IMG/VR virus record: IMGVR_UViG_3300020392_000018
Coordinates: 1-57,767 of that record
Source: a virus
Taxonomy: Duplodnaviria > Caudoviricetes
Length of the DNA stretch: 57,767 bases
Direction: 5' to 3' (one strand)
Below, piece after piece: positions 12,896 to 50,827 of this stretch. Each line of letters opens with the position of its first letter. The stretch's first letter is position 1. A program made the position numbers and the translations under genes. The notes beneath the pieces were generated by a model. That model ran no database searches. It had not been told where the DNA came from and saw nothing but the letters and a program-made list of their open reading frames with translations.

Positions 12896-13240
12896 TTATT
12901 CTACCTCTAAAAATATAAAAAATTCTATTGTATCATTTGAAGAGAATGGCCCAATTCCATCAAAATTTTCTCTAAACAACATATTAGAACTTGCGTCAAA
13001 AACTCCAACTTCTCTAAGGACTTGCCCCGTCATGGCCGCAGTTGCGCCACTAACTGTTAGTTTTATTTGAACAACATTGGCATCGGATTGGGTAGCCGTA
13101 GCGGTAGCGGTCGCTACAAGAGGAACATCTAAATCTGTTTGAGAAGAAAAGGTAGAGTTTCCACCTAAGCCAACCTTACCGTTATTTACTAGGCTGACCA
13201 AATGCGTAGCCAACAAATTCTGCATTTTTTCAGTTATCAA
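12896..13240 (-). CDS. Tail collar/fibre-attachment-like protein
   Basis: LREVGVFDASSNMLFR motif; position next to fibre. Confidence 0.55.
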   Translation of the reverse strand: MITEKMQNLLATHLVSLVNNGKVGLGGNSTFSSQTDLDVPLVATATATATQSDANVVQIKLTVSGATAAMTGQVLREVGVFDASSNMLFRENFDGIGPFSSNDTIEFFIFLEVE

Positions 13241-26142: not shown

Positions 26143-27786
26143 TCACCCCTGTAAGACCCAATGAGTTTTAACTGTGCAAGACTCTAATGTTCTTGGCATA
26201 ACTGTTCCTTCTACTGTAATTGGCCCTTTATCATCAGGTATTGTAAAGTTAGCCGCACTTAAATAGTAATCTTGTAATTTGATTAATATTTGCTCTCCAT
26301 TTGCTTTATCGAATTGTAGAGTAAGAAGAGTATCACTTGGACTACCTACTTCTGTTTGTTCTAATAGTTCTTCGAATAACCTATCATCTGTTACCATAGC
26401 AGTAAAAGAAACTTCATATGTTCTTTGAGCAGGTATAGCATCTTTAATTGATTTATTACCAATACCAATAAATCTTTTATCTTGTAGATTGTTATTTATT
26501 GTTAGGGTCAAGTTTGTAACCTTTAGGAATTGTTGTCCAAATACACTAAACAAACCACTTGAGAAAAAGAATGGTTCTAAAAATTCTTCATCAAAGTCAG
26601 TAGTGCTATTATCATTGGCTTGTTCAAAGTTAAACAATTGTCTATTATCCGATATACCGCCTCTTGCTTCATACGACTCTTGTTTTCCTAATTTATGAAC
26701 TGCCCTTGAATTTAAATCTAAAGTCATTTTAACTTCTTCATTTTCATTAGCCGTCATAGTTAATGTATTGACTCTATTGCCTCTTGCTATTCTAACAAAA
26801 GTAGTGTCTTCAAAATCATTAGCAGTATTTGTAGTTAATGTGCTAGATTTAGCCATAGTTTGTTCTAAAGCAAAAGAAGGTAGTTTTTCTCCATTTGCTT
26901 CTTTGAAAGTATATGTAATCAAATGGTCTGTTCCTGCACCCGTAGTTCCGTCAGTTATCGCTCTTTGTAATAATTCTAAATCACTTGTAGCGTCTAAAGG
27001 ATGAAGGATAGGAGGCATTAGCGTAGTTCCACTTCTAATTGATTTGTAAAATATTGGCCCTTGTTCTAAAAATTCGGTAACATCATGGTCGCTAGCCGCG
27101 CCACCATTTGCGGCATCAATATAAACAAACCTTCTATCATCAACAGAACTTGTGTCGTGAGCAGTAAATAAACTACCTGCGGCTTGATTTTCTAAAGTAG
27201 CATTAACATTAGTGCAACGACCTAAAGCGTAATACAAAAATGCACCGTGATTAGTCACTAGTGCTAGATTACCTCCACTAGCAGTTTCGATACCTTTGTA
27301 TTGATGAGTAAAGTTTCTTGAACTACCCAAAGATAAGTTAAGTTGTTTCATTTCAACTTCTAAGTTAGGAAATGTAGCACTTTCTAAAAGACCTAGCCAA
27401 TTATCAGCATTTAATCTTTTAACAGAAGCATTTTTTGGACCAACACAAGGCGCACCATATCCTCTAATGTGTATAAAATCACCATTTGCTAGAGTGATTG
27501 AGTGAGCAGGACTAATTGTTATATCTTGATGGTCGTTAGCAGTAATAGTATGAGTTGATGCAGGAGTGGTTGTTGAAACATCATTGTCATATAATTCAAG
27601 AGTGCAACCAACATACAAATTGTTTACTAATAAATATAAATTTTCAAAATCTCCATGAGTTCTAAGTTTGACTTTATTTGTAAAGCCTGTTCCCGATGCG
27701 CTATGGTCTATATTGATAAATAAATCTACTTCGGGTATCATTGTTAAACTTGCTTGGCTTCCTAAAAATATGTCTTCTGTTGTCAT
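26143..27786 (-). CDS. Major tail tube protein
   Basis: LPSFALE, RVNTLTMT, LTINNNL...RTYEVSFT tube-like pattern; synteny. Confidence 0.72.
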   Translation of the reverse strand: MTTEDIFLGSQASLTMIPEVDLFINIDHSASGTGFTNKVKLRTHGDFENLYLLVNNLYVGCTLELYDNDVSTTTPASTHTITANDHQDITISPAHSITLANGDFIHIRGYGAPCVGPKNASVKRLNADNWLGLLESATFPNLEVEMKQLNLSLGSSRNFTHQYKGIETASGGNLALVTNHGAFLYYALGRCTNVNATLENQAAGSLFTAHDTSSVDDRRFVYIDAANGGAASDHDVTEFLEQGPIFYKSIRSGTTLMPPILHPLDATSDLELLQRAITDGTTGAGTDHLITYTFKEANGEKLPSFALEQTMAKSSTLTTNTANDFEDTTFVRIARGNRVNTLTMTANENEEVKMTLDLNSRAVHKLGKQESYEARGGISDNRQLFNFEQANDNSTTDFDEEFLEPFFFSSGLFSVFGQQFLKVTNLTLTINNNLQDKRFIGIGNKSIKDAIPAQRTYEVSFTAMVTDDRLFEELLEQTEVGSPSDTLLTLQFDKANGEQILIKLQDYYLSAANFTIPDDKGPITVEGTVMPRTLESCTVKTHWVLQG

Positions 27787-31485: not shown

Positions 31486-32169
31486 TCACATTAACCATTT
31501 AGCCCAAGCCGCACCTTTTTGTATAGCACTACCTAAACCTAATCCGCTTTGTGGAGGTTCGTAACTCATTTGTCCTTGAGCATCTATCCAATATGGTCTT
31601 CCATAATTATCAGTTCCCGATGGTGGAATAGGATAGCCACTACCATTATTCATAGCACCTTGCATTTGTTGATATTGTTGAGTTTGTCCTGTTATTCCTG
31701 CTATCGCCATACCTGCTGTCGGTTGCACCATTTGTTGTGTTTGCATACCACCGCCGCCACTAAATCCTTGAGATTCTAGGTATTGTTGTTTTGCTAACTT
31801 TCTTTGATTGACAACTTCTGTATTGATTGCCGCATCTAATATATTCTTAATATCCAACTCAATGTTCTCTTGAGTAATTTTCTCAAACTCTCTCATAGCA
31901 TCGTTATGAATCTTTAACATGCCTGTTGTAGAATCAGTTGTAAATTGTAACTTAGCCAACATTTTACTAACTACTCTTTCTACAACATCTTCCATAAGTT
32001 TCTCCATCTGTGTCAAAAACATTTGACCATGATATTGAAAGAACTCTTCGACATGATTATCTTGTAAAGAAAGTAAGTTATTTACATTCTTGAATTGTTG
32101 GTCACTCTGTTGTTGAACTGCTCCTAAAACTGTCCCATTACTTGTTCCGAATATTCCCATATTACTCAC
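31486..32169 (-). CDS. Hypothetical protein, coiled-coil + Q/G/P-rich tail + C-terminal amphipathic helix
   Basis: Ends GLGLGSAIQKGAAWAKWLM. Confidence 0.7.
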   Translation of the reverse strand: MSNMGIFGTSNGTVLGAVQQQSDQQFKNVNNLLSLQDNHVEEFFQYHGQMFLTQMEKLMEDVVERVVSKMLAKLQFTTDSTTGMLKIHNDAMREFEKITQENIELDIKNILDAAINTEVVNQRKLAKQQYLESQGFSGGGGMQTQQMVQPTAGMAIAGITGQTQQYQQMQGAMNNGSGYPIPPSGTDNYGRPYWIDAQGQMSYEPPQSGLGLGSAIQKGAAWAKWLM

Positions 32170-32794
32170 CTTTCGCTCCCTTTAATAAATGATTTATCCT
32201 TTCTGTATTTAATTGTATTTCAGTATTCAATCTAACTATTTCTGCCAGTTGTGTTTCTTCGTCTGCTATTGGTGTTGGTGGCGTTATAGTCCATCCCATG
32301 CTAGTCAGCCTCATAACATCTTCTTTTGTTAAGTCAGTTATTTGTTGTCTTTTTAACATAGATGGCATTTTCGCTTTAGGAATAAATGCTTTAAAATCTA
32401 ATCCGTGTTCATCAGCCAGTATTTGTTGTTGTAGCATTTCCATTTGCTTATGGATAGCCGCATGTCTAGGACAGTAAGTTCCTCTAAGTGGCCTACCCTT
32501 CTCTACTTTATCTAGTGGTATTGGTGGTCTTAAATAATCACCGGACTCCCAAATATGATGAGTTCCACATACTACACACCTATCTTTAAAGTTAAACTTG
32601 TGACCATATCTTATGAAAAGAACCTTCTTCTTTTCCGGCAACAACACTTTTCTTATTTCTTTCATTTGCTTCTTTGGTTTTAGCGCATCAAACTTATAAT
32701 CTTCGATTGCCCCAACTGCTCTATACTGTTGTAGTTTAGGCAAAAAGGCATTCTTCGCTTGTTGCGTATTTATCAAATTCGGTTGCTGATACAT
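32162..32794 (-). CDS. Zn-binding hypothetical protein
   Basis: CVVCGTHH...YCPRH. Confidence 0.7.
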   Translation of the reverse strand: MYQQPNLINTQQAKNAFLPKLQQYRAVGAIEDYKFDALKPKKQMKEIRKVLLPEKKKVLFIRYGHKFNFKDRCVVCGTHHIWESGDYLRPPIPLDKVEKGRPLRGTYCPRHAAIHKQMEMLQQQILADEHGLDFKAFIPKAKMPSMLKRQQITDLTKEDVMRLTSMGWTITPPTPIADEETQLAEIVRLNTEIQLNTERINHLLKGAKGE

Positions 32795-32797
32795 CTT

Positions 32798-33358
32798 TCA
32801 TTCCTCTAAGTTTTTTCTCCAATTTTCCGACTCTTCCATTTCTTCTTCTTGTTCGGGGGTAAGGTGCATAGCAGGGTTAATATTTGGTTCAAGCACCTTG
32901 AATCTTTCAATAATCTTTTTTTGTTCTTTATCAACAAATTGTGCTACTTGTGAATTTGGTTCATGGGTATGTATTTCAATATGAGGGGGGTCGCCATACT
33001 GACCTAGAAAATATATCCATATACTGCTTGAGGGAAGATTAAATAAATATTCTTCTCCTAATTTTTTCCATTCATCTTCTTTAATATCAATTTTATACCA
33101 TTCCGCCCCACTTGCCATCATTTCTGATTTAAAAGTATCGTCTCCGCCAAACTCACCATTCACTATATCGTCTAGGGTAAACCAAGCGATATTAAGCGTG
33201 TATTCCTTTGACATATAGACTTGACCTGAAAACCCTTCAACTAACTTGGCATCCTTTCCATATATTTTTTCAAGTTCGTCTAATATTTTTTTGGTCAAAT
33301 TATCAAGATATTTTTGAGCCGAATACCTACCCATGCTCTTTATAATTTTAAACCACAT
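32798..33358 (-). CDS. Hypothetical protein with W-x-x-I-I-K leader
   Basis: Likely start MWFKIIKS at 33358. Confidence 0.65.
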   Translation of the reverse strand: MWFKIIKSMGRYSAQKYLDNLTKKILDELEKIYGKDAKLVEGFSGQVYMSKEYTLNIAWFTLDDIVNGEFGGDDTFKSEMMASGAEWYKIDIKEDEWKKLGEEYLFNLPSSSIWIYFLGQYGDPPHIEIHTHEPNSQVAQFVDKEQKKIIERFKVLEPNINPAMHLTPEQEEEMEESENWRKNLEE

Positions 33359-33363
33359 AATAA

Positions 33364-34026
33364 TCAATAATCCTTTATCATACTAGTAATTCCTTTATAC
33401 ACCATTTCGGGGTCGGACTTTGCTGATACTATATATTTGAAACAAGGTATGCCCTTGTCATTCAACTGCCTCATCCCGTATGTAAATGGTTCAAATATTT
33501 CATGTTTATCTATGGACTTATCACTCTTGTATTTATCTCCCCACATATCATATTTGTTAGCCCATATACCAACAGCCATAGGATAGTCTGCCTCTTTCTT
33601 CTTTCTACCCGAAGGCCACCTGTCTGCTACAATAGTATCTACTAAAAACTTCCATGCTAATTGATGGTCTAAATTAGAAGGTGAATCTAAATGCCTGTGG
33701 TCTATCATGAAAATAATATACTTTACTCTACGCTTCTGCATATCCTTAACCCATTCTTTCCAATAGATTGCCTCTCCTCCTAAGTCAGCACTTTTAATTG
33801 TATGAGAGTCACCATCAATCTTTACATTTTTTCTAGTGGCTCTATGTAAACCAACAGTTCTATCGTTTATTGTGGGAACTTCGCCCCTTGTTCTAAGTTG
33901 ATGACTCAAAGTTGTTTTACCAACCATTGTAGAACCATAGACTCCAAAATTAATTGCGTGAACTCTTTTGTAGAAACCTATTATGGCTTCACCAACTAAT
34001 ATGGCAAAGCCTGTCATTATTGACAT
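33364..34026 (-). CDS. Ras-superfamily small GTPase (Arf/Sar1-like)
   Basis: G1 GSTMVGKTT, G2 RTVG, G3 DLGGE, G4 NKYD, G5 SAK; start at ATG 34026 (TAATG overlap). Confidence 0.9.
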   Translation of the reverse strand: MSIMTGFAILVGEAIIGFYKRVHAINFGVYGSTMVGKTTLSHQLRTRGEVPTINDRTVGLHRATRKNVKIDGDSHTIKSADLGGEAIYWKEWVKDMQKRRVKYIIFMIDHRHLDSPSNLDHQLAWKFLVDTIVADRWPSGRKKKEADYPMAVGIWANKYDMWGDKYKSDKSIDKHEIFEPFTYGMRQLNDKGIPCFKYIVSAKSDPEMVYKGITSMIKDY

Positions 34027-34316
34027 TAAACAATCACTAATCCCTTTCCTTCCATGCGTTCCCAAAAAGTAATTGCTTCATCTACAGGCATATGAACTAG
34101 AGGAATATCATTAGTTTCAATTTCTCCTTCTAAATAATCAATAAATTCTCTTAGGTATTTTTCACCTAAGCCCTTATTTCTATATCCCTTTTTTAAACCA
34201 AATTGATTAATTTGCCAATAAGTTCCATATTCTCCATCAATTAATTCTGCTTCTCCATCACTTATTCTATCGTTAGAAATCCAAGAATAAGTGCTTTTGA
34301 GAACATCTTTCCACAT
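34026..34316 (-). CDS. GNAT acetyltransferase-like protein with W-x-x-V-L-K leader
   Basis: YRNKGLGEKYL acetyl-CoA motif A; EAITFWERM. Confidence 0.65.
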   Translation of the reverse strand: MWKDVLKSTYSWISNDRISDGEAELIDGEYGTYWQINQFGLKKGYRNKGLGEKYLREFIDYLEGEIETNDIPLVHMPVDEAITFWERMEGKGLVIV

Positions 34317-34317
34317 A

Positions 34318-34536
34318 TTAATGCCCCCAAATATCTTTAGCCCTCTCTATAATCCAACCCATTATATTAATGTCAAAGACTCCCATTATATTACCAATCA
34401 AAAAGGCTGATAGTGCCGCACAAGAACCCCAAAAATACATCTTCATTTTTATGAAGAACATATCTGCTGAATGCGCTCGACTTTGATTATATACATAGTC
34501 GGACTCACTAAAGCCCATTATGTCGCCAAAGACCAA
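34318..34536 (-). CDS. Small membrane protein
   Basis: Hydrophobic MYFWGSCAALSAFLIGNIMGVF. Confidence 0.65.
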   Translation of the reverse strand: MVFGDIMGFSESDYVYNQSRAHSADMFFIKMKMYFWGSCAALSAFLIGNIMGVFDINIMGWIIERAKDIWGH

Positions 34537-34547
34537 ATGACCACAAC

Positions 34548-34955
34548 CTACTGTTGTATAGTCGCTAAGAATTCATTTCCTATTGTGTTGTCGTCGTATT
34601 CTTCAGCCGCCATAACATTACTGCGCCAATTTTCACGCCTTACTGTTCCGAACTGTTTCATGCTTTCTTGTAGTTTAGACTTGATTTGTTCTTCTCTTTG
34701 TAATCTTTGGAAATGGTTTTCTATTTGTCTATCTAACAATCTAATCTCAATCTTGTCGTTTAATGATAAGTCAAATAGTGCTTTCATAACCATGATTGCT
34801 CCTACTGTAATAAGTCCAAATAAGACAGAATGCGCTAATGCTCCGTAGGGGAAACCTAGACCGTATGCTGAATAAAAATATACATTCGCTCCGCTAACCG
34901 TTCCGACAAATAGAATTGTCATAACCAACCTTGTATCTTGACTTAGTGCCGCCAT
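34548..34955 (-). CDS. Two-TM membrane protein with C-terminal coiled coil (holin-like topology)
   Basis: Two hydrophobic segments followed by charged helix. Confidence 0.65.
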   Translation of the reverse strand: MAALSQDTRLVMTILFVGTVSGANVYFYSAYGLGFPYGALAHSVLFGLITVGAIMVMKALFDLSLNDKIEIRLLDRQIENHFQRLQREEQIKSKLQESMKQFGTVRRENWRSNVMAAEEYDDNTIGNEFLATIQQ

Positions 34956-36384: not shown

Positions 36385-37722
36385 TCACTGTATGTTTGTT
36401 ATCTTTCCTTGTCCTCTAAAGAATGAACATCCTACTTCACCTATTGTTCGGTATAATGCCCTGTTACCTAGAGTTCCAACACCGAATGGGTTTCCGTTAG
36501 CAATACCATCTTCAAAGTATTGAGTTGGCTTCATAACGGATAGCCATAGGTGGTCTGTATCAAGGAATAGTAAATCACTTATTTTTTCCGAACCGTTACC
36601 TGTTTGACACATATCCTTTACAGGAATAAGTGGCAAGTCATAGTAAGTAGCGACTCTAAATCCAACTTCTTGACCCTTTACACCACGAACACCATTTACA
36701 GTTGGGACAATTTCTTTTCTGTCCATGAATCTTTCTTGGCTTTGTAGCAAGTCAGCAATTGTTTGAATAGTATCATATCCGGTTAGAATAACCTTTGGAG
36801 AACCACCGGCTAGTCTTAGGTTTCTAATCATATCATTCAATCTTGTTAGAGTTAGTGAACGGACATCTCCTGCCGCATAACCACTACCAAAGTCTACTTC
36901 TGCATCAAGGAAAGAAGCGGCGGTAAATCTCTCTCTACCGTAAATCTTTCCTAGAGCGTTAGAAGCGGAAGTAACATCAGTTGCGATAGCCCCATCGTCA
37001 ATTGCTAGTAGTTCTGCTCTTGAGGTAATAACCTTGTTTAGAGAAGTATAGTTGTTACCGATGCTTGGCATAGCGGCTGATTCACCATAATGTTCTAGTG
37101 GCATAACCAACATCTTGTTTTGAACTTCAGCGTGATGCTTACCCATATCTTCACGCATTTGCGCTCTAATATCGCCAATACCATCATCAATTTGTGCCAT
37201 TTCCATAGCAAGTTCGCTGAAATCAAATTGGTGTGCAACTACTTTAGGACTCATGTTGAGTTGTGCATAAGTTGGTGCAATTGGGCCAAGTCCATCAGCC
37301 GCAGTTGAAAGTCCTGCGTTTTCAGGGACACCACCAATAAGGTCTGCTCTTGGACTATCCGAACCTAATTCGCCTAGTGATGCAGTTCCGCTTGTATCAA
37401 CAGTAAACAAATTACCGCTTCCACCGGCAGGTCGTGATTGTAGAACTCTCCATCCACTAGAAGAATATGGCCTCTTTGAAATCATTGAAAGAGCATTAAC
37501 TTCTCTATTCAACATTGACCAAACTTTTTGTCCGTAAACAATGTTGTAAAGTGCTGATACATCACTAATGCCACTACCGGAGAATGCCGGAGAACCATCA
37601 TGTCCTGTGTGTATTCCACCTACAGCACCGGCTTGCTTCAAAAGAGCGTTACCGGCAGGTAGATTGCTTATTCCATATGTGCTTGCTTCTAAATCTGCGA
37701 TTGTGTTAATATAACCTGTCAT
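36385..37722 (-). CDS. Major capsid protein (HK97 fold)
   Basis: Follows protease-scaffold; PKVVAHQFDFSE, DMGKHHAE, YYDLPLIP, FLDTDHL, QGKITNI patterns. Confidence 0.88.
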   Translation of the reverse strand: MTGYINTIADLEASTYGISNLPAGNALLKQAGAVGGIHTGHDGSPAFSGSGISDVSALYNIVYGQKVWSMLNREVNALSMISKRPYSSSGWRVLQSRPAGGSGNLFTVDTSGTASLGELGSDSPRADLIGGVPENAGLSTAADGLGPIAPTYAQLNMSPKVVAHQFDFSELAMEMAQIDDGIGDIRAQMREDMGKHHAEVQNKMLVMPLEHYGESAAMPSIGNNYTSLNKVITSRAELLAIDDGAIATDVTSASNALGKIYGRERFTAASFLDAEVDFGSGYAAGDVRSLTLTRLNDMIRNLRLAGGSPKVILTGYDTIQTIADLLQSQERFMDRKEIVPTVNGVRGVKGQEVGFRVATYYDLPLIPVKDMCQTGNGSEKISDLLFLDTDHLWLSVMKPTQYFEDGIANGNPFGVGTLGNRALYRTIGEVGCSFFRGQGKITNIQ

Positions 37723-37723
37723 C

Positions 37724-38968
37724 TTAAATTCCTCCTACCATTTTGTGAATGTCCGACCAATCCATTTCAGCCATCTCTTCCATACTTGGGAGTTTAATTG
37801 CGGATTCTTCTTGTGCCTTTAGAATAGTTTCCTTTTCTGCTGTCAAAGATTTCCTTAGTTGGGTAAATTCATCCTTAAGAGAAGCAATCTCGCTTTGTGC
37901 ATCATAGTTTTGCTTTGCGATAACATCCTCTCTTGTTGAAACTTCTCTTGCGAATCTTGCTTCAAAAGACTTCTTTAGGTTGTCGTAAGCAAGTGCTTCA
38001 AGTTGTTCTTGTCGGAAAGCCTCATATGCTTTCTCAATGTTTCCAACAGACAAATCAAGAGTATCAAACTCTCCATTGTTAAATGCCTTTACAACAGGCA
38101 TATCGGAAGCAGTCGGTTTACCGTTGTTGATAACAATACGGTCAGCAGGTTCTCCAATTTGATTACCCGCACCATCAACAGTTCTCAAGTAAGCCTTTGC
38201 CTCTTCATCTTGATATTCTGCATGTTCCATGTCTTCTTCATCTTCTTTCATGTCCATTTCTTTCATTTCCATGTTTTCATCATCTTCTTTCATGTCCATT
38301 TCCTTCTCTTCATTCATTTCTTTTTCATACATGCTCTTTTCATCGTCGAGCATCTCTTCTTCTTTACGAAGCGTATTTACCTCTTCTAGCAAAGTATCTA
38401 ACTCCGCCAGTGCTTTTTCCAGTTTATTACTCATGTTTTTTTCTCCTTTATCTTGTTTCAAAATATCGAACCTCGCTTCGGGGTTAATTCCTTTTTCGCA
38501 TATAGTAATTTCATGCAATTCTAACTTGCTGATTTCATTATATTCACCCAAGTTTTCATTACTTTTCTTTACTTTTTGGAGGGCTTGTCCTCCTATGCTA
38601 AAAGACCTCAACGACCCCTTGCGAATGTTTCTACCAACTTCTTTGGCTTTTTCTATATCATCTCGTAGTTTAATTACTACAAAGAAACCAACATCATCTA
38701 CTTCGGATTTCCAAAGTCTGCCAGTGCTGTCTCTATAAGAATCTACAACTTCTCCAACTTGAACATTGGAATGATTTGTCATGACATTTCTAAATTTAGA
38801 ATCTTTCATGAACTTAAGAACTGCTTCCTTCAAAGCAGGTAATGTAATTAGGTCGTTTTGCTTATCTACAATTTCAATGCTAGCATAACCACCAATCATT
38901 AAATCGTCACTTCTAGCCTTAAGAATGGTAAACCCATCATTCCTAGTTGCTAGAACTGCTGATGTCAT
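37724..38968 (-). CDS. Prohead protease fused to acidic coiled-coil scaffold
   Basis: IGGYAS..VDKQNDLI, NHSNVQVG, RSFSIGG, HEITICEKGINPEA; C-terminal E/K/M-rich scaffold; start likely ATG 38968. Confidence 0.9.
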   Translation of the reverse strand: MTSAVLATRNDGFTILKARSDDLMIGGYASIEIVDKQNDLITLPALKEAVLKFMKDSKFRNVMTNHSNVQVGEVVDSYRDSTGRLWKSEVDDVGFFVVIKLRDDIEKAKEVGRNIRKGSLRSFSIGGQALQKVKKSNENLGEYNEISKLELHEITICEKGINPEARFDILKQDKGEKNMSNKLEKALAELDTLLEEVNTLRKEEEMLDDEKSMYEKEMNEEKEMDMKEDDENMEMKEMDMKEDEEDMEHAEYQDEEAKAYLRTVDGAGNQIGEPADRIVINNGKPTASDMPVVKAFNNGEFDTLDLSVGNIEKAYEAFRQEQLEALAYDNLKKSFEARFAREVSTREDVIAKQNYDAQSEIASLKDEFTQLRKSLTAEKETILKAQEESAIKLPSMEEMAEMDWSDIHKMVGGI

Positions 38969-38991
38969 TGCGCTCGTATGGAAAAAATTTA

Positions 38992-39007
38992 CTTTTAATA
39001 TATAATA
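38992..39007 (-). promoter_or_regulatory. Putative archaeal TATA-type (late) promoter
   Basis: TATTATATATTAAAAG ~30 nt upstream of ATG 38968 in intergenic gap. Confidence 0.5.
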
Positions 39008-39027
39008 CACACGGTCATTTTAAACTA

Positions 39028-41577
39028 TTAATCCTCTTTTGGAGGCAATTTAAGAACGCTGTATTTATCTTCATAAATATTCCAAAGCCCCTTATCTGCA
39101 TCAGTGTCAGCAGGTTTTTGTTCATAGCCTGTCCACGCTAACCACATCTTTTTTCCTTTAACTTCAAGCATTCTAACATGAAGTTTAGTTTCAAACTTGT
39201 TTCCATCTAAGAAGTATTCATGATAGCCTTCTTTTTGAACACCTAATTTAACATCACCACTATCAATTAATTTACGCTTAGAAATATTCTTAGCAACAAT
39301 AGCAGGGAACTTACCTGCTTTTCCAAATAATTCAAAAATGTCATCTTGTGAATCTAATCTAACCATCCAGTTGATGCTCTCATCACCTAACTTCATTACT
39401 ATATTTAGATTATCGTCATCTCTAAGATATATCTTAAACTCACCACTTCTATATTTTTCGGGTGTTTTGTATTCTTTTTTGATAGTGTCCATCAGTATCT
39501 TATCATTTTCTGCGAACAACTTTTTTGTTTTAACATCAAAAGATATACCATCTCTATTTTCAAACCAATCTTTTACTCTACTTTCTTTACTTTCCAGTAT
39601 ATCTTGATACTTCTTTTTGTGATTTTTAACTAAAAAGTTGTGAACTTCTTTTGGTGTTTTAGCACCTTTTTGTTTTAAGAAATTAAATATAGCAACAGTA
39701 AGTTTAGATTGTTTTGTTTTCATTATTTCTTCTGCTTGCTCTTTCCACAAGTCTAAATCCATTAATGCATTTTTAGACATTAAATTGTCTTGCTCAAAAC
39801 CATAAATAGTAAAGCCATCCATATCTCCCTTAATTATTATATTAGCCTCACCGTGAATATGGTCAGTAACTATAATCCCTTTTTCTACTTCTTCTACATT
39901 ATATTTTAGAGACTTATCAGTATCGTTAATTAACATCTGCAAAGTCACTAACTTATCCGGTGTTTTACATTCAGCAATCTCATTTATCTTTGCTGAGTAA
40001 ACTACAGGCTTACCCTTTACCTCCTTTACTTTATCAATAGAAACTCTAACTACTTCTCCAACATCTGCTGAAACTTTAGTATTAGTAGCACTACCCACAT
40101 CAAGATAGTTTATACCTTCTATTTTTTCCCCATCCTCTTCAATTGGCCCTGCTCCTAATTTGTATGAAAAGTTAGAACCGCTTTTCTTTTTATCAAGAAC
40201 AATTAAATCTAATTCTACAACAGGTTTCCATCTAATCCATTTAGGATTCTTCTTTGTTCCTAAGAAATATGTAGAAGTTGCATCTTTAATCATAGCCCCT
40301 TCTGCTGTTGGCATTTCCATAATTTTCTTAGCATACTCATCTACATCTTTTAGATTGTCTGCTACTCTAGTATCTTTTTTAGAAGGAAATGTCAATGCTT
40401 CACTAGAATGTATAGAATAATTATTAAACATTATTTGCATTCTGTTTTGTAATGTGTCTTCCATGAGGTTTTCTTCATTGTGTCTCATAATGTCAAATAC
40501 ATGGATTCTTGGCTTACCATCTCTTTTTCCTGCTAAATACTCAACCGCTTCTTTTCTTTTAAGAGAGTCATCTTCATCAAACAGAACAAAAGAAGCATCC
40601 AAGATACAATCACCAAAATGTTTTTTGTTTAGTTCTTCAACTGCTTCTTTACATTTTGATGTAATATCTTTACCTGTATAATCATAGACTTTTATGTTCT
40701 TATCTATTTTATGTAGTTGAATTCTAAAACCATCATACTTTTCTTGAACATAGAACTCACCACTAAATCCTTTTAGTTCATTCATGTCTTCTATTGTAAA
40801 TATTCTATACATTGGTTTGTTAGGAATTATGAAATCACTTTGGGCTTTTTCTTCATCTGATTTTTCCTCTTTTAGAATAGTTTTTTTATTATCATTTTTT
40901 TCTTCTTTAGCCTTAGCCTCATCTAAATCTGTATCTATGTCTTCTAATTCAGCCCACTCTTCTTTGCTATTATTAGATAAGAATATTAATTCTAGCATAT
41001 TCATAGCGGCTTTTACTTTTGTTTCTACTTTCTTAGAGTCTTTACCATCACCATAATGTTCTATGATGTAAAGTGCAACATCATCAACTTCTAAATCTAA
41101 TCCTGTTAAACCGTCTGTAATATTATCGGGTTTCATATCTTTAATTGAATATGCTTCTTTTGGTAGTGCTTTATCATCTTCTCTAATAGCATAGTGAACA
41201 AATTTAATCATAAGTTCAGGTGAATCCAACAGTGCTTCTAAAACATCACCTTTAAATTTTTTAGCGAAAGGGTCGCTAACTTCTTCCGAAGAATATCTTA
41301 ATGCCTTGATTCCTTCGTATAATTTTTCAGCATTATTAGTGCTAACATCGGAAACATCATTTGCTTCTAGTAAATCATCATCAATAAAATCTTTAAGTTC
41401 ATTTGAAAGAGCATCAGTCATTTCATATGCTTCTTTGATTTTGTTTACTGCGTTTCTCCATTTAGAACCGTATTCCTTTGGGTCGGTTCTTGCTGAAAGA
41501 TAAGCAACTCTTGTTCTCTCAAAGAGTCTTAGAATATCTGTGGATATTGACTTATCCTTCTCAATAAGAAGTGGCAT
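39028..41577 (-). CDS. ATP-dependent DNA ligase-like multidomain protein
   Basis: Motif I QEKYDG, IIIa VFDIM, IV EGAMIKD, V WIRWKP..ELDLIV, OB region; long N- and C-terminal extensions. Confidence 0.85.
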   Translation of the reverse strand: MPLLIEKDKSISTDILRLFERTRVAYLSARTDPKEYGSKWRNAVNKIKEAYEMTDALSNELKDFIDDDLLEANDVSDVSTNNAEKLYEGIKALRYSSEEVSDPFAKKFKGDVLEALLDSPELMIKFVHYAIREDDKALPKEAYSIKDMKPDNITDGLTGLDLEVDDVALYIIEHYGDGKDSKKVETKVKAAMNMLELIFLSNNSKEEWAELEDIDTDLDEAKAKEEKNDNKKTILKEEKSDEEKAQSDFIIPNKPMYRIFTIEDMNELKGFSGEFYVQEKYDGFRIQLHKIDKNIKVYDYTGKDITSKCKEAVEELNKKHFGDCILDASFVLFDEDDSLKRKEAVEYLAGKRDGKPRIHVFDIMRHNEENLMEDTLQNRMQIMFNNYSIHSSEALTFPSKKDTRVADNLKDVDEYAKKIMEMPTAEGAMIKDATSTYFLGTKKNPKWIRWKPVVELDLIVLDKKKSGSNFSYKLGAGPIEEDGEKIEGINYLDVGSATNTKVSADVGEVVRVSIDKVKEVKGKPVVYSAKINEIAECKTPDKLVTLQMLINDTDKSLKYNVEEVEKGIIVTDHIHGEANIIIKGDMDGFTIYGFEQDNLMSKNALMDLDLWKEQAEEIMKTKQSKLTVAIFNFLKQKGAKTPKEVHNFLVKNHKKKYQDILESKESRVKDWFENRDGISFDVKTKKLFAENDKILMDTIKKEYKTPEKYRSGEFKIYLRDDDNLNIVMKLGDESINWMVRLDSQDDIFELFGKAGKFPAIVAKNISKRKLIDSGDVKLGVQKEGYHEYFLDGNKFETKLHVRMLEVKGKKMWLAWTGYEQKPADTDADKGLWNIYEDKYSVLKLPPKED

Positions 41578-43028: not shown

Positions 43029-43384
43029 CTCTTTTCCTCCTTTGGTGGATATACTAAATCTCTTAATTGTCTGTAAAGCAATTCATAGTCCTTACGAAGT
43101 TCCGTAGCCGAAGCGACTATATCTACATTCCGTTCTTCCATAGATTTCATTTTCTTTGTGAGTTTTTTATCTGATTTAACTAGTTCAACATCCTTTAATG
43201 CTGATACTAATTCACCCAACTTAGTAAAATCTTGACCAAAAAATTCTGTTGGTTGTGCGGCTTGTAGTGTTTTCTTTAGACGCTTAGTTTGTTTTTTATC
43301 TAATGAGTCTAATATATTCTTCTTTACCTTTTCTTGCTTTTTTATGGTAAACTCTTTACCTTCTTCATAATAATCCCATGTCAT
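43025..43384 (-). CDS. Hypothetical protein
   Basis: ORF track; ATGA overlaps. Confidence 0.65.
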   Translation of the reverse strand: MTWDYYEEGKEFTIKKQEKVKKNILDSLDKKQTKRLKKTLQAAQPTEFFGQDFTKLGELVSALKDVELVKSDKKLTKKMKSMEERNVDIVASATELRKDYELLYRQLRDLVYPPKEEKR

Positions 43385-46300
43385 TTTTCAGCCTCCATCT
43401 CTCTTCTTTGTTCTTCTAAGAATCTTAATCTTTCTTGTTCTTTTTGGTCTTCTTCTTGCTTTTGTGCTTTGAAATCCTCTAATAGTTCTTTGAATGTTCC
43501 TTGTTTCTTGCTATCATTATACTTTAGTTCATAACTATCCCTTGTATCTTCTTTAGCAAATTTTTCAGCAAACTTAGGATTGTTTTCTGCTAATACTCGC
43601 ATGCGGCCTCTTTTCATAAACTGTATTCTAATCTTAAAAGTTTCATATTTTTCATCTTTTTCTTCTTCAATGGTTGGCCTTTCTTCTGTAGAAACTAAAT
43701 CCATATCAAAACTACCTCTAAAGTTTTTAATTATATCTGCCAAAGAGTCATCTGCTTCTTTTTGAATTTTTTTCTGTCCTTCTATATTTTCTAAATGTTT
43801 TTCTTGCACTTTCTTGTGTTGTTTTCTGTAAGCATCAAAAGCATCTGTTAAATCAATCATCTCTGCAAATTCCTTTCCTATTATTTCATTGGCCAACAAT
43901 TCTTTTATGTTATCCTGCGAAGCATCTATTTTCAATTTACTAAAATCAAAAACTTTAGTCTTAGTTTTGAAAGTTTTAACTAGTGCGTCAAAGGCTTTTT
44001 CTGCTTCAGCAACTTCTTTAACTTCTTCTGCAAATGTTTCAACATCACCTCTTGCTCTAGTGGTGGCTAGTTTATCATAGTCTTCCTTTGAAACTACTTT
44101 AGTAGCCTCTAAAATAATCTCTCTTGCTAAACCTTCATCAGTCATGTTTGAATCAAATAACTCTTGTAGTGAATCCTTTTCATTGGCTCTAGCAGTATCT
44201 TCTAATATTTTTTCGCTTTGTTTTGCTGATAGTCTTATGATTCCTTCAAACTTAAATAAATTAGGAAGAGTCTCTTTTGCTTTTTTATTTTGTTCTTTAA
44301 GACGAGCCTCTACTTTTTTATATTCACTAAGTTTTTTATCTTCTTTACCTTCTGCCAAGAATCTTTCTTCTGCGCTTACTAAATCAACCTTATTAGTTCT
44401 AGCCCACATTGCCATTGCTTCGCCCACATCAACTTCTTTTGGTATTTTCATACCTTTATCTATGAAATCATCAAACCTATCTATCATAGTATCTGCATAT
44501 TCTTTCAATGCTTCTGCGTAGTTTGGTTGCTTAGTTGGCTCTAAAGCATCGGCCTTGCTTGCGAAAGACTTTCTAAGTTTAGTAATTTTATCTACAAACA
44601 CTTCTACTTCTCGCATTACTGTGAGTATTTCTTGTTTTTCATCCATCAATTCTATGAATTGTTCCATCTGTTTCTCGATTTCTTCTTGTTCCTTTGTTTT
44701 AATACTTAGATTATTTAGTGCTTCTATTACAGTTCCAAACCGTTCTTCGCTTGGTTCTTTAGCATCTTCTAATTGTTTTATAGCATCTGCTTTAACCCTG
44801 ACCTTATCGAATAAAACATCCCAATAGTCTTTGACTTGCTGAACTCCAATTTCTTTTGTCTTACCGACCTTTACATCTTCTTCTATTTGTTTTAAGTTCC
44901 TAGTAAACTCCGAATGAATTATCATAGGGAATATAGGTGCAAACTTTTGACCCTCTATAGTGACTTTCTTTCTTTCCATTTCACTTAACTTCCAAGTCCT
45001 AGTATCTTCAACACCAAAAGACATTGGACTATTATCATCTATTAACCCAACAAGACTTAGATTTTTTAGAGCAGAAAGTAAACCTGTTGAAAGTTCTGCT
45101 TCTTTCTTTAGCATATCTTTTACAATGAAGTCGGGGATGGGTGAAAGCATTTCTTTCATTTCAACCCTTCTTCTAACAAAGTCAGGTAATTGGTCTAAGG
45201 CTCGCTTAAGTTGCTTTTTCTTATCAGTAGTAGTGGTGTCTTGTTCAAAAACAGTTTTTCCTGTGAGTTTTTTATATGTTCCTCTAATTGCATTTATAAT
45301 TTTATCATCTTCTAATATTTCTTGTATTTTCTTTACTACTGTTTCTAAATCATCGAATCCTTCTATTTCACCAAACATCGGGAACTCTCTTCTAGCAAAA
45401 TAATAATCTCCACTAGTCGGCATAATAACATCAAAGTGCTTGTATGCTTCTTTACCAATTAGGTCTGCTTTCTTGAAATAATACTTTGGTTTCTTATCCT
45501 GTCTTCTTTTAGCGTCAGAAACTTCAACCTCGCTCAGTAATTTTGGCAAACTCTTTAGCCTTCTATCAATGTCTTTCTTCATACCTCTTAGTTTCTTTTC
45601 GTTTCCTTGTATTTTTTCATCTAATTCAGCCACTTTACTTCTTATTTTATTTGCGACTTCATTTTTCTTATCCTTTCTTTGTGGTGCAGGAAGTGACATT
45701 AATTTTTGTTGTTCTTTTTCTCTTCCCTTTCTTTGCTTATCTATTTTTTTAGTTAGTTCTGTAATTTTTTGTCTTATTTCTAGTAGAGCCTTTCTAGTTT
45801 TATCTAAGTCTTCTTTACTCTTTTTTCCTTTTTCTGTCAAAGACTTTGCCTCTCTTTCTTCTAACCTTTCTAACTTATCATTACTTACACTATCTCCTTG
45901 TAATATGGTAATGGCATCTCTTATCATCTCCAATCCATATTTTGTGCCTTCAAATATTTGTTTAGCAACCAACATTCTTTTTTCGTCGCTAGTTCCTTTT
46001 AGTCTTGAAATATCCTTTAACTCATTCAATTCAGATAATAGTGTTTCATAGAATGGTTTAGTGTATTTTGTTAATCCTTCAGTTTCTCTTTGTTGTAAAC
46101 TTGCTAATACTTTTTTATTTTGTGCAGTTAGTAATCTTTGTAGATTTTCTATTTTCTTGCGAGTAGTTCCTTCTTCTTCTTCTTGTATAGAATTTAGTAG
46201 GTAACTTAAATAATTGAATACTCTTTGTATTGCTTCTTTTTGAACACCTTTACCATCAGTTATCATAGCACCCTTTCTGCCCTTAGATTGCTTTATTCCC

Positions 46301-47652
46301 CTTGCTTTGGCATCAGTTTCTAAAAATGCTCGTAATTTTTCGTCAGTATATTTTCCTTTGAACGATATAGAATGATAAGGTAATACAATGTTTGGTATTC
46401 TAGGAGGTATTTTTTTTCCTTCTTCTGTAGTTCTCTTTCCTAGCACAGCCTTTACTCTTTCATCTTCTAATATTTCTTTTAAATCCTTTATAGGCTGTCC
46501 GGTATTTTCTTTCGTATTCTGTAAGACTTTCAACGAACTGACTCTAATAGTATTAAAGTTATCTTTAGCAATTTTTTTCCTGTTTTTGTTTACTTTATCA
46601 GTTAATTCTTTTATTTTTGCTTGAGTTTCTTTTATTTCTTTAGCAGTTGCTTGTCTATTCACTAATAAATCGGGCCTACCTTTTTCATCGAGAGCAAAAC
46701 CTCTTTCTTTCCAATCTTCTGCAAACTCTTTTTCTGCATTTTGTAGTTGCTCCTTGAGTTTCTTTTCTTTTTCATTCAGTTTCTTGGCTTGCTTTTCTCT
46801 TTCTTTGTCGTCTTCTATGTAAGGTTTTATTCTGTTTTTAGTTTTCTTTTTATCTTGAAGTTCTGTTTGCTCAATTACTAAATTAGCAAGTTGCTTTCTC
46901 AATCTTTCTCGCTTGCCTACAAAAGCGGCTATTCTTTTTCCTTCTTTACTACTAGGAGCATACTCGCCAAATCTTGTCTTAGGTGCAGGAACATCGAATT
47001 CATCCTTGTTGGTAAATTTGAAACCTAGCCGAGACTTAGGCTTAACTCTTCTATCCTTTTGTTGAAACGCCGCAAGTTCATTCTGCAATTGAGTTAGTTT
47101 AATTGTGTCAGCCCTCAATTCTTCTCTTGCTAAAAATAACTTTCTGCTATTGGTATATTCTTTCCAAGTGTTTTTTATTTCATCAACCGTGTAAGAATAT
47201 TCAGTTTCTCCTAGTTTAAACTCCATTGGTTTATCTTCTTGTATGAATTTGTCGTAATATTTCTTTCTAACTTTGTAGACAATATCTAATTTTTCTTTTT
47301 GAGTCAAGTCTTTATTCTTTTTTGCTTTATCTAATTCTCTTTTTACTTCGGGATAGAAACCAGAACTGAACATTAATTTTTTTTCGGTTTCATCTTCTTC
47401 ATCAAGAACTTCTTTTGGTTTGTCAAATTCACTATTTTCAATCGCTTCTTGCTCAAGTTGTTCAAACTCATCTTGTGAATCAAAAATTTCATCTTCTAAA
47501 GCATCATTAGCATTACTATCTACATCAAGATAATTTTTGTCTTCGTCTTCATCTGCTTTTATGATGGCTTTATCTTCTAACTCTTCAACTAAGCATTTCA
47601 AAAGAAAATGAAGGTCATCTTCTTTATTGTATAAGATAGCCTTCACAAACAT
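43381..47652 (-). CDS. Large K/E-rich coiled-coil protein (possible internal head protein)
   Basis: 1423-aa ORF between portal and protease; GAGG RBS. Confidence 0.75.
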   Translation of the reverse strand: MFVKAILYNKEDDLHFLLKCLVEELEDKAIIKADEDEDKNYLDVDSNANDALEDEIFDSQDEFEQLEQEAIENSEFDKPKEVLDEEDETEKKLMFSSGFYPEVKRELDKAKKNKDLTQKEKLDIVYKVRKKYYDKFIQEDKPMEFKLGETEYSYTVDEIKNTWKEYTNSRKLFLAREELRADTIKLTQLQNELAAFQQKDRRVKPKSRLGFKFTNKDEFDVPAPKTRFGEYAPSSKEGKRIAAFVGKRERLRKQLANLVIEQTELQDKKKTKNRIKPYIEDDKEREKQAKKLNEKEKKLKEQLQNAEKEFAEDWKERGFALDEKGRPDLLVNRQATAKEIKETQAKIKELTDKVNKNRKKIAKDNFNTIRVSSLKVLQNTKENTGQPIKDLKEILEDERVKAVLGKRTTEEGKKIPPRIPNIVLPYHSISFKGKYTDEKLRAFLETDAKARGIKQSKGRKGAMITDGKGVQKEAIQRVFNYLSYLLNSIQEEEEGTTRKKIENLQRLLTAQNKKVLASLQQRETEGLTKYTKPFYETLLSELNELKDISRLKGTSDEKRMLVAKQIFEGTKYGLEMIRDAITILQGDSVSNDKLERLEEREAKSLTEKGKKSKEDLDKTRKALLEIRQKITELTKKIDKQRKGREKEQQKLMSLPAPQRKDKKNEVANKIRSKVAELDEKIQGNEKKLRGMKKDIDRRLKSLPKLLSEVEVSDAKRRQDKKPKYYFKKADLIGKEAYKHFDVIMPTSGDYYFARREFPMFGEIEGFDDLETVVKKIQEILEDDKIINAIRGTYKKLTGKTVFEQDTTTTDKKKQLKRALDQLPDFVRRRVEMKEMLSPIPDFIVKDMLKKEAELSTGLLSALKNLSLVGLIDDNSPMSFGVEDTRTWKLSEMERKKVTIEGQKFAPIFPMIIHSEFTRNLKQIEEDVKVGKTKEIGVQQVKDYWDVLFDKVRVKADAIKQLEDAKEPSEERFGTVIEALNNLSIKTKEQEEIEKQMEQFIELMDEKQEILTVMREVEVFVDKITKLRKSFASKADALEPTKQPNYAEALKEYADTMIDRFDDFIDKGMKIPKEVDVGEAMAMWARTNKVDLVSAEERFLAEGKEDKKLSEYKKVEARLKEQNKKAKETLPNLFKFEGIIRLSAKQSEKILEDTARANEKDSLQELFDSNMTDEGLAREIILEATKVVSKEDYDKLATTRARGDVETFAEEVKEVAEAEKAFDALVKTFKTKTKVFDFSKLKIDASQDNIKELLANEIIGKEFAEMIDLTDAFDAYRKQHKKVQEKHLENIEGQKKIQKEADDSLADIIKNFRGSFDMDLVSTEERPTIEEEKDEKYETFKIRIQFMKRGRMRVLAENNPKFAEKFAKEDTRDSYELKYNDSKKQGTFKELLEDFKAQKQEEDQKEQERLRFLEEQRREMEAEK

Positions 47653-47661
47653 ATTATAGCC

Positions 47662-47889
47662 TCAAAATGGAATATTCTCTTTCTTACCTCTCCTTTTTTG
47701 TGGGGGTAAGATAACATCGGGAACATCATTAGATGCTCTTGTTGGTTTGTGAGTTGTGTCCGGTGGTAATCCACCGATAGAAAAATCACGATTCTTCGTA
47801 GTCTTTCTAGTTTCATTTGCATTCTGCGTTCTAACCTTTGCTAGTTCTTTCTTTAGTCTAATCTCTTTCTGTCTATTATCTTCTGTCAT
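47662..47889 (-). CDS. Hypothetical basic protein
   Basis: TAATG overlap with portal stop; GGAGG RBS. Confidence 0.6.
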   Translation of the reverse strand: MTEDNRQKEIRLKKELAKVRTQNANETRKTTKNRDFSIGGLPPDTTHKPTRASNDVPDVILPPQKRRGKKENIPF

Positions 47890-50422: not shown

Positions 50423-50827
50423 TTATCTCTTAGGCTTGTGAGTGTAGAAATCACCATTAGTATGTTCGTGAATAGTTCCTCTCTTTTTCATATCTGCAAG
50501 AACCATCCTTAGTTTTTTAGGAGAGCCTATTCCTTTTAGATTTTTCATACCTAAAGCCCCTCCTTCTTTCTTTACTTCTGCTAGAATCTTTCTTTCCATG
50601 TCTTTACATTCATCATGACTAATAGTAGTGCTACCCTCTTTTAATTCTCTTTTGTTTATTTTCTCTCTTCTAAGCATAGCAAAATCTTTACCTGTTATTT
50701 TACCGTCTTTGTCTTTGTCAATTCTTTTTTGATTTCCATACAATGCTTTTTCTTCTTCATTGTCATCTTCATCTGCTTTTTCTCTATTGCCACCGCAATG
50801 CATTTTTAATATATCTTTCCAACTCAT
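50423..50827 (-). CDS. EF-hand-containing protein with WKDILK leader
   Basis: IDKDKDGKITGKDF EF-hand loop; C-terminal winged-helix-like segment. Confidence 0.65.
   Translation of the reverse strand: MSWKDILKMHCGGNREKADEDDNEEEKALYGNQKRIDKDKDGKITGKDFAMLRREKINKRELKEGSTTISHDECKDMERKILAEVKKEGGALGMKNLKGIGSPKKLRMVLADMKKRGTIHEHTNGDFYTHKPKR

Follow-up and report, generated by a model that had tools for sequence, protein, structure and literature searches.

Small GTPases of the Arf family carry a switch II signature, DxGG followed by a conserved tryptophan, and myristoylation of Arf proteins needs a glycine at position 2. SRbeta, a GTPase related to Arf, is anchored in the membrane through a hydrophobic segment at its N-terminus, and in heterotrimeric G-alpha subunits a helical domain is inserted between the G1 and G2 motifs. 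Here we describe what is very probably a divergent GTPase of this Arf/Sar1/SRbeta/G-alpha branch of the Ras-like superfamily, encoded by a magrovirus, i.e. a tailed virus of the Poseidoniales (marine group II archaea). The gene lies at positions 33364..34026, on the minus strand, of a 57.8-kb magrovirus fragment (IMG/VR record IMGVR_UViG_3300020392_000018, 57,767 nucleotides at its full length; hereafter the window), for which CheckV estimated a completeness of 62%. An earlier reading of the window (the original prediction) had proposed a virus-encoded Arf/Sar1-like GTPase with an amphipathic N-terminal helix in the virion operon. Such a helix is the defining feature of the Arf family according to the available part of a preprint on Asgard Arf-family GTPases (bioRxiv 10.1101/2024.02.28.582541). 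In archaea, the Arf-like GTPase ArvA of Haloferax has an N-terminal amphipathic helix, proposed as its means of membrane binding, and drives vesicle formation; its Pfam label is MMR_HSR1 only, and its operon includes a Zn-ribbon protein proposed as a GTPase-activating protein (GAP). ArvA is found mainly in Halobacteriota, Methanobacteriota and DPANN, and the name 'Poseidoniales' does not occur in the portion of that text available to us (PMC10927574).

The window protein resembles Arf, Arl, Sar1 and the Asgard ArfR proteins in that they give its best or near-best profile matches and its top fold scores, and in a switch II with DxGG and tryptophan. It also shares with the Arf family the NKxD and SA motifs, a helix before strand 1, a length of about 200 residues and the lack of an extra domain. 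It differs from the known members in its helix, its catalytic residue, its insertions and its setting: the magrovirus helix is much more hydrophobic and not demonstrably amphipathic; residue 2 of the window protein is serine, not the glycine used for myristoylation; glutamate stands for the catalytic glutamine; switch I and the interswitch are longer and variable, and a basic loop is inserted; and the gene belongs to a tailed virus.

33364..34026, minus strand: small GTPase gene, 220 amino acids plus stop (ATG at 34026, stop at 33366-33364)

The list of open reading frames (ORFs) gives the gene a longer form with a TTG start at 34065, 13 codons earlier, which would run into the upstream gene. 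The start at 34026, to which the original prediction had moved the gene, is right. The stop codon of the upstream gene overlaps the ATG (TAATG), the listed homologues are mostly 217-222 residues long, and the N-terminal motif MS[ILV][ML][TA]GF is found in 13 of 13 group-A-like rows of alignment A2 (23 sequences, down to 22% identity); several of the called homologue ORFs begin a few residues upstream of this motif.

Of 572 candidates in a word-indexed search, 370 were homologues at E ≤ 0.01. Those listed (120) are 70-94% identical to the window protein at 94-100% query coverage; five of the listed homologues carry the JGI automatic name "GTPase SAR1 family protein", and one homologue (P0078, 77% identical) is an NCBI entry. 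The family is narrow, since an exhaustive search among 1.84 billion cluster representatives returned only 65 at E ≤ 0.001. A search with the magrovirus-only alignment (A4) for fused or longer forms of 463-2000 residues found none, which is weak evidence and leaves lengths of about 386-462 residues outside the search; tblastn of P0001 and P0135 against a phage collection gave no match, which says little. This is a genuine gene on which purifying selection is strong. The dN/dS ratio relative to the window (Nei-Gojobori) had a median of 0.044 and a maximum of 0.065 for 34 of 35 ungapped 220-codon orthologues from related viral contigs. In the 80 closest loci (the best 80 of 237 confirmed relatives of the window protein, 78 of them scored for the GTPase), median identity was 86% for the GTPase, 67% for the major capsid protein, 62% for a neighbouring Cys/His protein and 61% for a 135-residue membrane protein, so that in close loci the GTPase is better conserved than the major capsid protein (36385-37722). 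The sole match on a genome contig, 85% identical to the window, was on a 12.2-kb contig (L086, NZMJ01000024.1) filed under a metagenome-assembled genome (MAG) of the bacterium Maricaulis sp.; most likely it is a misbinned magrovirus contig.

The nucleotide-binding motifs of the protein are as follows.

33910-33936, minus strand: G1/P-loop, GSTMVGKTT (residues 31-39), with G31, G36, K37 and T39 invariant
33850-33861, minus strand: candidate G2/switch I, RTVG (T57), placed by a HMMER alignment to PTIGV of the structure 8oun
33751..33786, minus strand: G3/switch II, DLGGE...W92 (residues 81-92; DLGGE at 33772-33786), with D81 and G84 invariant
33547-33558, minus strand: G4, NKYD (residues 157-160), for guanine specificity, with N157, K158 and D160 invariant in A2 and A4
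33418-33426, minus strand: G5, SAK (residues 201-203), read as SAK in 79 and as MAT in 80 of 163 loci

All five G motifs named in the original prediction lie at these positions. Four of them (G1, G3, G4 and G5) are canonical, and RTVG as G2 is plausible from the alignment; T57, however, is not invariant, the region is modelled with a predicted local distance difference test score (pLDDT) of 52-65, and T64 in ATRK is an alternative. Ten residues are invariant across A2 (G31, G36, K37, T39, D81, G84, D109, N157, K158 and D160). We further compared 163 ORFs from 165 related loci, chosen by the presence of G1 and NKxD; the remaining two loci were not parsed. GxxxxGK[ST]T was present in 163 of 163, though it had been used to select them. 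D-x-[GA]-G and a tryptophan 11 positions after its aspartate were each found in 163 of 163, and the residue after DxxG, glutamate in the window protein, was E in 98, Q in 54, D in 6 and H in 5. The residues predicted to bind phosphate, Mg and guanine are thus conserved, the G1, G3 and G4 motifs and the G-domain fold are those of the Ras-like (TRAFAC) GTPases, and, judged from its motifs, the protein would bind and hydrolyse GTP. A degenerate GTPase that keeps the fold, does not cycle and serves only as a scaffold could account for the variation at the catalytic glutamine position (E, Q, D or H across loci) and for the uncertain G2. Histidine (as in Sar1) or glutamate at this position is compatible with hydrolysis, and the nucleotide-binding motifs stay invariant down to 22% identity; we consider loss of cycling highly improbable.

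With the single sequence, phmmer against the Protein Data Bank (PDB) returned only an antibody chain at E 0.72, taken as chance. The A2 profile matched the Asgard Arf-like chain 8oun best (6.3e-9), then Arl3 (5di3, 5.9e-8), then KRas/HRas and Rab33B chains at about 1e-7; 8oun is cited in the available part of the preprint on Asgard ArfR GTPases (bioRxiv 10.1101/2024.02.28.582541). The A4 profile was built to check that this signal did not stem only from the three most distant sequences of A2. It again placed 8oun ahead (5.3e-5), followed by Rab33B (3.8e-4), Arl8/Arl10 (7e-4 to 1.2e-3) and, lower, SRbeta and KRas (about 5e-3). RecA concatemer chains at the top of the A4 list are an artefact of summed 17-residue P-loop matches and not relatives.

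In the alignments from the A2 profile the switch II of the window protein (DxGG, the tryptophan and a hydrophobic strand ending in aspartate) matches DLGGQ...W...IIFVMD of 8oun and DIGGQ...W...LIYVID of Arl3, which bears out the Arf/Sar1-like parallel (DxGG...W...IIFxxD) seen in the original prediction. The Arf switch II signature is thereby present throughout, with the tryptophan in all 163 ORFs and Glu, Gln, Asp or His after GG. The three most distant members of A2 passed the Pfam Arf cut-off (P0174 57.2 bits, P0180 36.5 and P0167 27.2), and P0122, 62% identical to the window protein, scored 16.8 bits on the same profile. When aligned by hhalign, A4 and P0174 matched over 178 columns with a probability of 99% (E 3.3e-18); the best PDB matches of P0174 were mini-Gq (3.2e-12), other G-alpha cores and Arl3. 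In the ESM Atlas, the nearest named clusters after viral ones were bacterial and Asgard (scores 0.92-0.96), with Pfam Arf in 17-100% of their members.

The AlphaFold2 (AF2) model computed on A2 had a mean pLDDT of 81.6 and a predicted template modelling score of 0.79, and showed a G domain of six strands and five helices, with a further helix (residues 3-22) in front of it; pLDDT was 52-70 in the switch I/interswitch region. Foldseek against the PDB gave at least 500 chains at E ≤ 0.001, with a GTPase in each of the 50 chains listed. The first matches were G-alpha chains, 9edt_G (a chain of a tubulin-cofactor complex, which we take to be Arl2), Arl3, Arf1, Arl1 and Arf6. Target-normalised TM-scores were 0.69-0.79 for the listed Arf/Arl chains, 0.62 for 9edt_G and 0.59-0.66 for Ras/Rab. 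VIA-align, which is independent of Foldseek, gave Z scores up to 17.8 over 156-178 residues: Arf6 17.8 (two entries), SRbeta 17.2 (also 15.9), an Asgard RagA-like GTPase 17.2, Sar1 17.1, the mimivirus Rab 5xc5 17.0, G-alpha s 16.9, G-alpha i 16.6, Arl13B 16.5, and other Rab, Ras and Rho proteins 14-16. Entries within one Z unit count as ties, and because of these near-ties the fold favours the Arf/Sar1/SRbeta/G-alpha set only modestly. G-alpha proper was ruled out: there is no helical domain, with 17 residues between T39 and T57 and 220 residues in total. The G-alpha matches in Foldseek were chains of 207-238 residues, presumably engineered forms without the helical domain.

Several observations weigh against an Arf-branch assignment. 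The window protein stayed below all Pfam cut-offs (MMR_HSR1 18.5 bits vs 21.9, SRPRB 14.4 vs 25, Roc 15 vs 27, Ras 12.7 vs 21.6) and gave no match at E ≤ 1 to Pfam Arf (PF00025, cut-off 22.3 bits). Arf is also scarce among the 23 A2 members, of which 20 matched MMR_HSR1 at E ≤ 1, 17 Roc, 15 SRPRB, 14 Ras, 9 Arf and 8 G-alpha. The linking sequences P0174, P0180 and P0167 are singletons on 1.6-2.4 kb contigs, and no other relatives of P0174 were found in the word-indexed search. The lead of Arf-like proteins over Rab and Ras is small both in VIA-align and in the A4 profile, where Arf-like chains are ahead of Rab33B by about one order of magnitude only. Among further collections, NCBIfam gave only a generic small_GTP domain, below its cut-off. 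Thus, in the fold and profile searches that the original prediction had called for, Arf-branch matches lead, but by a small margin over Rab/Ras and without a Pfam Arf match of the window protein. Taken together, the profile ranking, the hhalign match to P0174, the AF2 fold matches and the invariant DxGG and tryptophan of switch II lead us to place the protein, with high confidence, in the Arf/Sar1/SRbeta/G-alpha branch as a divergent member; the claim of a virus-encoded small GTPase nearest to this set by profile, fold and switch II signature is upheld.

A Ras-superfamily GTPase is indeed unusual for a tailed virus, as had been supposed. No PHROG family was matched apart from a P-loop match at E 0.11, and all 50 of the viral structural look-alikes listed from BFVD come from giant eukaryotic viruses. 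The giant-virus GTPases, such as the mimivirus Rab (5xc5, fold Z 17.0), are likewise virus-encoded members of the Ras superfamily, but their origin as Rab, Ran or Ras copies taken from eukaryotic hosts can still be recognised, whereas the magrovirus family is deeply divergent and occurs, inside the structural array, in all sampled loci of a lineage of prokaryotic tailed viruses. These comparisons bear on the idea that the protein mimics a host Arf-like or ArvA-like GTPase and redirects vesicles or the envelope, for instance to block superinfection or to shed receptors, instead of serving virion release. Such captures have parallels in the Rab, Ran and Ras copies of giant viruses, in the vesicle formation driven by ArvA-family GTPases in Euryarchaeota (PMC10927574, in the part available) and in the Arf-type GTPases reported, in the accessible text, from a mobile-like region of an Asgard genome (PMC11529989). 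The magrovirus family, however, is very distant from any cellular sequence found and does not look like a recent host copy; full-length representatives with traceable contigs sit on long, magrovirus-sized contigs of up to about 104 kb, and the one genome-contig match is the 12-kb contig mentioned above, 85% identical to the window and filed under a bacterial MAG. Host manipulation of this kind is in our view improbable.

Two further features lie outside the G motifs.

33961..34026, minus strand: N-terminal hydrophobic helix, residues 1-22 (MSIMTGFAILVGEAIIGFYKRV), followed by basic residues (from AF2 and Kyte-Doolittle hydropathy)
33589..33615, minus strand: basic loop PSGRKKKEA, a family-specific insertion between helix 3 and strand 5 (from the alignment)

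The helix was modelled at residues 3-22 with a pLDDT of 51-54, so its docking in the AF2 model is uninformative. In all 23 A2 sequences strand 1 is preceded by a hydrophobic segment that is rich in Gly/Ala, contains aromatic residues and ends in front of Lys/Arg, and a Lys/Arg-rich stretch occupies the position of PSGRKKKEA in all full-length magrovirus members aligned. The mean Kyte-Doolittle hydropathy over 19 residues is 1.66 in the window protein, which is borderline by the classical transmembrane threshold (a conserved Glu13 lies in the middle of the helix), and about 1.5-1.9 in the window's group (homologues starting at the same methionine). The best 18-residue stretch of the window protein has a hydrophobic moment of 0.32 at a mean hydrophobicity of 0.84 (Fauchere-Pliska scale). 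A signal peptide was rejected, as the N-region lacks positive charge and the GTP on which a GTPase depends is cytoplasmic.

Two of these properties count against a membrane-inserting, Arf-like helix. In the other groups the Kyte-Doolittle mean is 0.8-1.3, below the transmembrane threshold, and 25% of sequences shuffled from the same residues have a moment of at least 0.32, so that the helix is not more amphipathic than its composition gives; across the 23 A2 sequences the fraction of shuffles reaching the observed moment was 0.02-0.75. The N-terminus described in the original prediction as hydrophobic and amphipathic is therefore confirmed as hydrophobic but not as amphipathic. The membrane segment of SRbeta matches the near-transmembrane hydrophobicity of the window helix, and SRbeta also agrees in fold (Z 17.2 and 15.9) and in the Pfam SRPRB matches of 15 of 23 members at E ≤ 1. 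It is unlike the magrovirus family in that SRPRB (PF09439) stayed below its cut-off of 25 bits even in the best member (P0167, 22.5; window protein 14.4), two of the three magrovirus groups have a segment too short or too weak to span the membrane, and no SRalpha-like partner was seen. Overall, the hydrophobic helix is compatible with an in-plane or monotopic anchor, with a true anchor as in SRbeta, or with a helix that packs against a partner.

The surroundings of the gene were compared in three sets of loci: set A, the best 80 of 237 confirmed relatives of the window protein; set B, the best 80 of 127 relatives of P0135, which is about 34% identical to the window protein; and set C, four relatives of P0139. 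The GTPase gene is conserved in all three magrovirus groups sampled in this way. In the window the neighbourhood reads as follows, with the set A counts taken only over loci with enough flank.

34548..34955, minus strand: 135-residue membrane protein with two hydrophobic segments and a charged C-terminal coiled region, in 76 of 76 set A loci
34318..34536, minus strand: 72-residue protein with one hydrophobic segment, in 77 of 77
34026..34316, minus strand: 96-residue GNAT-like ORF, an accessory insertion between the 72-residue gene and the GTPase gene, in 5 of 77
32798..33367, minus strand: 189-residue ORF, an accessory insertion between the GTPase and Cys/His genes, in 2 of 74
32162..32794, minus strand: 210-residue Cys/His protein, the conserved partner, in 67 of 67
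31486..32169, minus strand: 227-residue Gln/Met-rich protein, in 59 of 59

The 96-residue ORF (Pfam Acetyltransf_1, 20.3 bits vs a cut-off of 20.7) and the 189-residue ORF are strain-specific insertions outside the core. The order common to sets A, B and C is a protein of 129-239 residues with one or two hydrophobic segments, a protein of 72-82 residues, the GTPase, a protein of 218-294 residues and a protein of 205-272 residues. The 72-82-residue protein has a hydrophobic segment in sets A and B and in only 1 of 4 set C loci; in set B, the position directly before the GTPase is held by a small one-segment protein in 73 of 75 loci. When the sets were compared by hhalign, the GTPase was matched with a probability of 99.8-100% and the next (Cys/His) gene with 92-100%. 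For the gene directly before the GTPase and the second gene after it, the comparison did not demonstrate homology between sets (0.2-20%); the 227-residue protein gave a blastp match to the ORF two after the GTPase gene of locus L084 at 2.7e-6. The membrane protein two genes upstream matched between sets B and C (98%), but between A and B or C only at 1-2%, the level of mismatched controls. The upstream membrane proteins are thus not demonstrably homologous between set A and the other sets, and a cassette that extends past the GTPase and Cys/His genes is one of architecture. GTPase and Cys/His protein make up the firm conserved unit, and what is kept of the membrane proteins before them is their place and architecture only. 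In the P0135-like group the membrane protein two genes upstream of the GTPase ends in a shared Lys-rich tail, R/K-N-x-D-G-T-[FY]-K-K, at the following places.

6221-6757 of L004, plus strand: membrane protein with the Lys-rich tail
6184-6744 of L048, plus strand: membrane protein with the Lys-rich tail
6130-6735 of L062, plus strand: membrane protein with the Lys-rich tail

The Cys/His protein carries C73, C76, C108 and H111, and its motif GTYCPxH is invariant; a plus-strand ORF with TYCP.H was found in 141 of 164 loci. In the alignment of this protein (A3), C73, G77, T106, Y107, C108, P109 and H111 are invariant and R101 nearly so, and the second cysteine is shifted or missing in some sequences. 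No Pfam or PHROG family was matched and nothing scored above 0.84 in the ESM Atlas. The AF2 model was poor (pLDDT 59.6), and a predicted complex of the GTPase and the Cys/His protein with GTP and Mg scored 0.17 and 0.00 against a mark of 0.32, which is evidence neither way.

Contigs of relatives from public RNA libraries reproduce the core order. Contigs from two runs join 34026 exactly to 34318, skipping 291 bases and the GNAT-like ORF, and contigs from two runs join 32804 exactly to 33364, skipping 559 bases and the 189-residue ORF; the GTPase gene is thereby bridged to both core neighbours. In one study such contigs cover parts of the GTPase gene and bridge to both neighbours, which is no proof of transcription; in a second study they cover the region of the upstream 135-residue gene only.

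The association of a GTPase with a Cys/His protein recalls ArvA (OapA), with which the family also shares MMR_HSR1 as its commonest Pfam match (20 of 23). Against a shared system, neither PF09846 (OapB/ArvB) nor PF09845 (OapC/ArvC) was matched at E ≤ 0.1 in the window, and PF09845 was also absent from four magrovirus records, with the controls found in Haloferax volcanii. The ArvA parallel is suggestive, as an analogy.

The wider setting of the gene is an array of virion genes that runs on the minus strand from 57752 down to about 10142.

53249-54691, minus strand: terminase
47889-49535, minus strand: portal
43381-47652, minus strand: 1423-residue ORF, no Pfam match at E ≤ 0.01
39028-41577, minus strand: 849-residue protein that includes an ATP-dependent DNA ligase domain, its gene lying after the portal and before the protease
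37724-39010, minus strand: prohead protease
36385-37722, minus strand: major capsid protein, followed by several small ORFs and then the GTPase neighbourhood
26143-27786, minus strand: tail-tube protein, after the GTPase gene in array order
13237-21933, minus strand: 2898-residue ORF after the tail tube, no Pfam match at E ≤ 0.001

A ligase inside the structural module has been described for magrovirus groups A and B in the available text of Philosof et al. (PMC5434244), and the ligase of the window fits that description. The "virion operon" of the original prediction holds as a statement of position, with the GTPase gene between the capsid and tail-tube genes of a same-strand array. At the left end of the window lie plus-strand replication genes (family B polymerase pieces, a PD-(D/E)XK nuclease and an ERCC4 nuclease). 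The family B DNA polymerase is matched by two plus-strand ORFs, 61-1179 and 3082-3963 (Pfam profile positions 38-193 and 222-366), with about 1.9 kb between them that holds ORFs 1176-1949 and 1927-2370 of no clear family; the polymerase gene looks split by an insertion (an intein, an intron or a mobile gene), or there are two genes. In addition, a 134-residue ORF at 50423-50827, on the minus strand, showed weak EF-hand matches below threshold (20.7 bits vs a cut-off of 25.4).

The place between capsid and tail-tube genes is the usual one for connector and completion genes of tailed viruses, and the protein could in principle be a soluble assembly factor that times or checks head completion or head-tail joining, its helix serving for autoinhibition or for docking to a protein. 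Amphipathicity of the helix is not significant, in two of three groups its hydrophobicity is too weak for a transmembrane segment, and the corresponding helix of GDP-bound Arf is packed against its own protein (bioRxiv 10.1101/2024.02.28.582541, in its available part). Small hydrophobic proteins directly upstream in all three groups do not fit this picture, nor do the lack of a PHROG family for the GTPase and of a match of its neighbours to any known connector or completion family. We know of no Ras-like GTPase that takes part in the assembly of tailed viruses, and we regard a soluble assembly factor as unlikely. Structural arrays often include genes for ejection or internal proteins that have hydrophobic segments, as in P22 and T7. 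The membrane proteins, the GTPase and the Cys/His protein might be packaged as a virion-borne entry module, released on infection, that helps the DNA across the host envelope, like podovirus ejection proteins. The genes are co-oriented and tightly packed with virion genes, down to the TAATG overlap, but GTP is unavailable in the virion, the sequence contains no hint of capsid targeting, and we know of no packaged small GTPase; this possibility appears very improbable.

The best explanation as a whole is a conserved magrovirus GTPase of the Arf branch with a membrane-linked late role, which we hold to be about evenly balanced between right and wrong. The N-terminal helix would hold the GTPase at, or deliver it to, the cytoplasmic face of the host membrane, either by an in-plane or monotopic anchor as in Arf/Sar1 or by a true anchor as in SRbeta, and the GTP state of the protein would recruit or control virus proteins there. 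The Cys/His protein, with a nearly invariant arginine beside its putative metal site, is a candidate regulator (GAP-like) or effector. That the GTPase is a membrane-associated switch may equally be so or not, in our estimate. As to the process, our best guess is virion release or a membrane-linked late step of assembly, because the genes lie in the late structural array beside the holin-like 135-residue protein. This neighbour has two hydrophobic segments and a charged C-terminal region, which is the architecture given for holins in the accessible part of a review that also calls the egress players of archaeal tailed viruses "completely uncharacterized" (PMC10791045). A role in egress specifically is possible, though on balance doubtful. 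It is distinctly unlikely that the GTPase, the Cys/His protein and the membrane proteins together form a virus-owned, GTP-switched membrane-remodelling system that opens or reshapes the host envelope for release.

The gene is known to databases, some copies bearing a JGI label, and yet appears undescribed. No magrovirus paper mentioning a GTPase gene was found, although the supplementary gene tables of PMC5434244 may name it; the word "GTPase" is absent from the main texts of PMC5434244, PMC10160649, PMC11706807 and PMC8651126 and from three supplements of PMC10160649. In the available parts of the literature on archaeal viruses and Caudoviricetes, small GTPases appear as the host ArvA (PMC10791045) and as two Arf-type genes in the mobile-like region of an Asgard genome (PMC11529989).

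With this family the Arf/Sar1/SRbeta/G-alpha branch gains, outside Asgard archaea, a lineage that is carried by viruses and has diverged deeply. It bears on the spread of Arf-type membrane switches in archaea and their viruses. Most magrovirus genes are without assigned function, and a recognisable molecular switch gives access to magrovirus biology in an unusually testable form. For the lytic release of archaeal tailed viruses, a membrane-directed GTPase encoded next to holin-like proteins offers a concrete candidate. If the membrane-remodelling system were real, viruses would have their own equivalent of the ArvA/ArvC vesiculation pair and of eukaryotic Arf/ArfGAP, and it would supply the missing egress machinery of archaeal tailed viruses in a virus group that ranks among the most abundant in the surface ocean.

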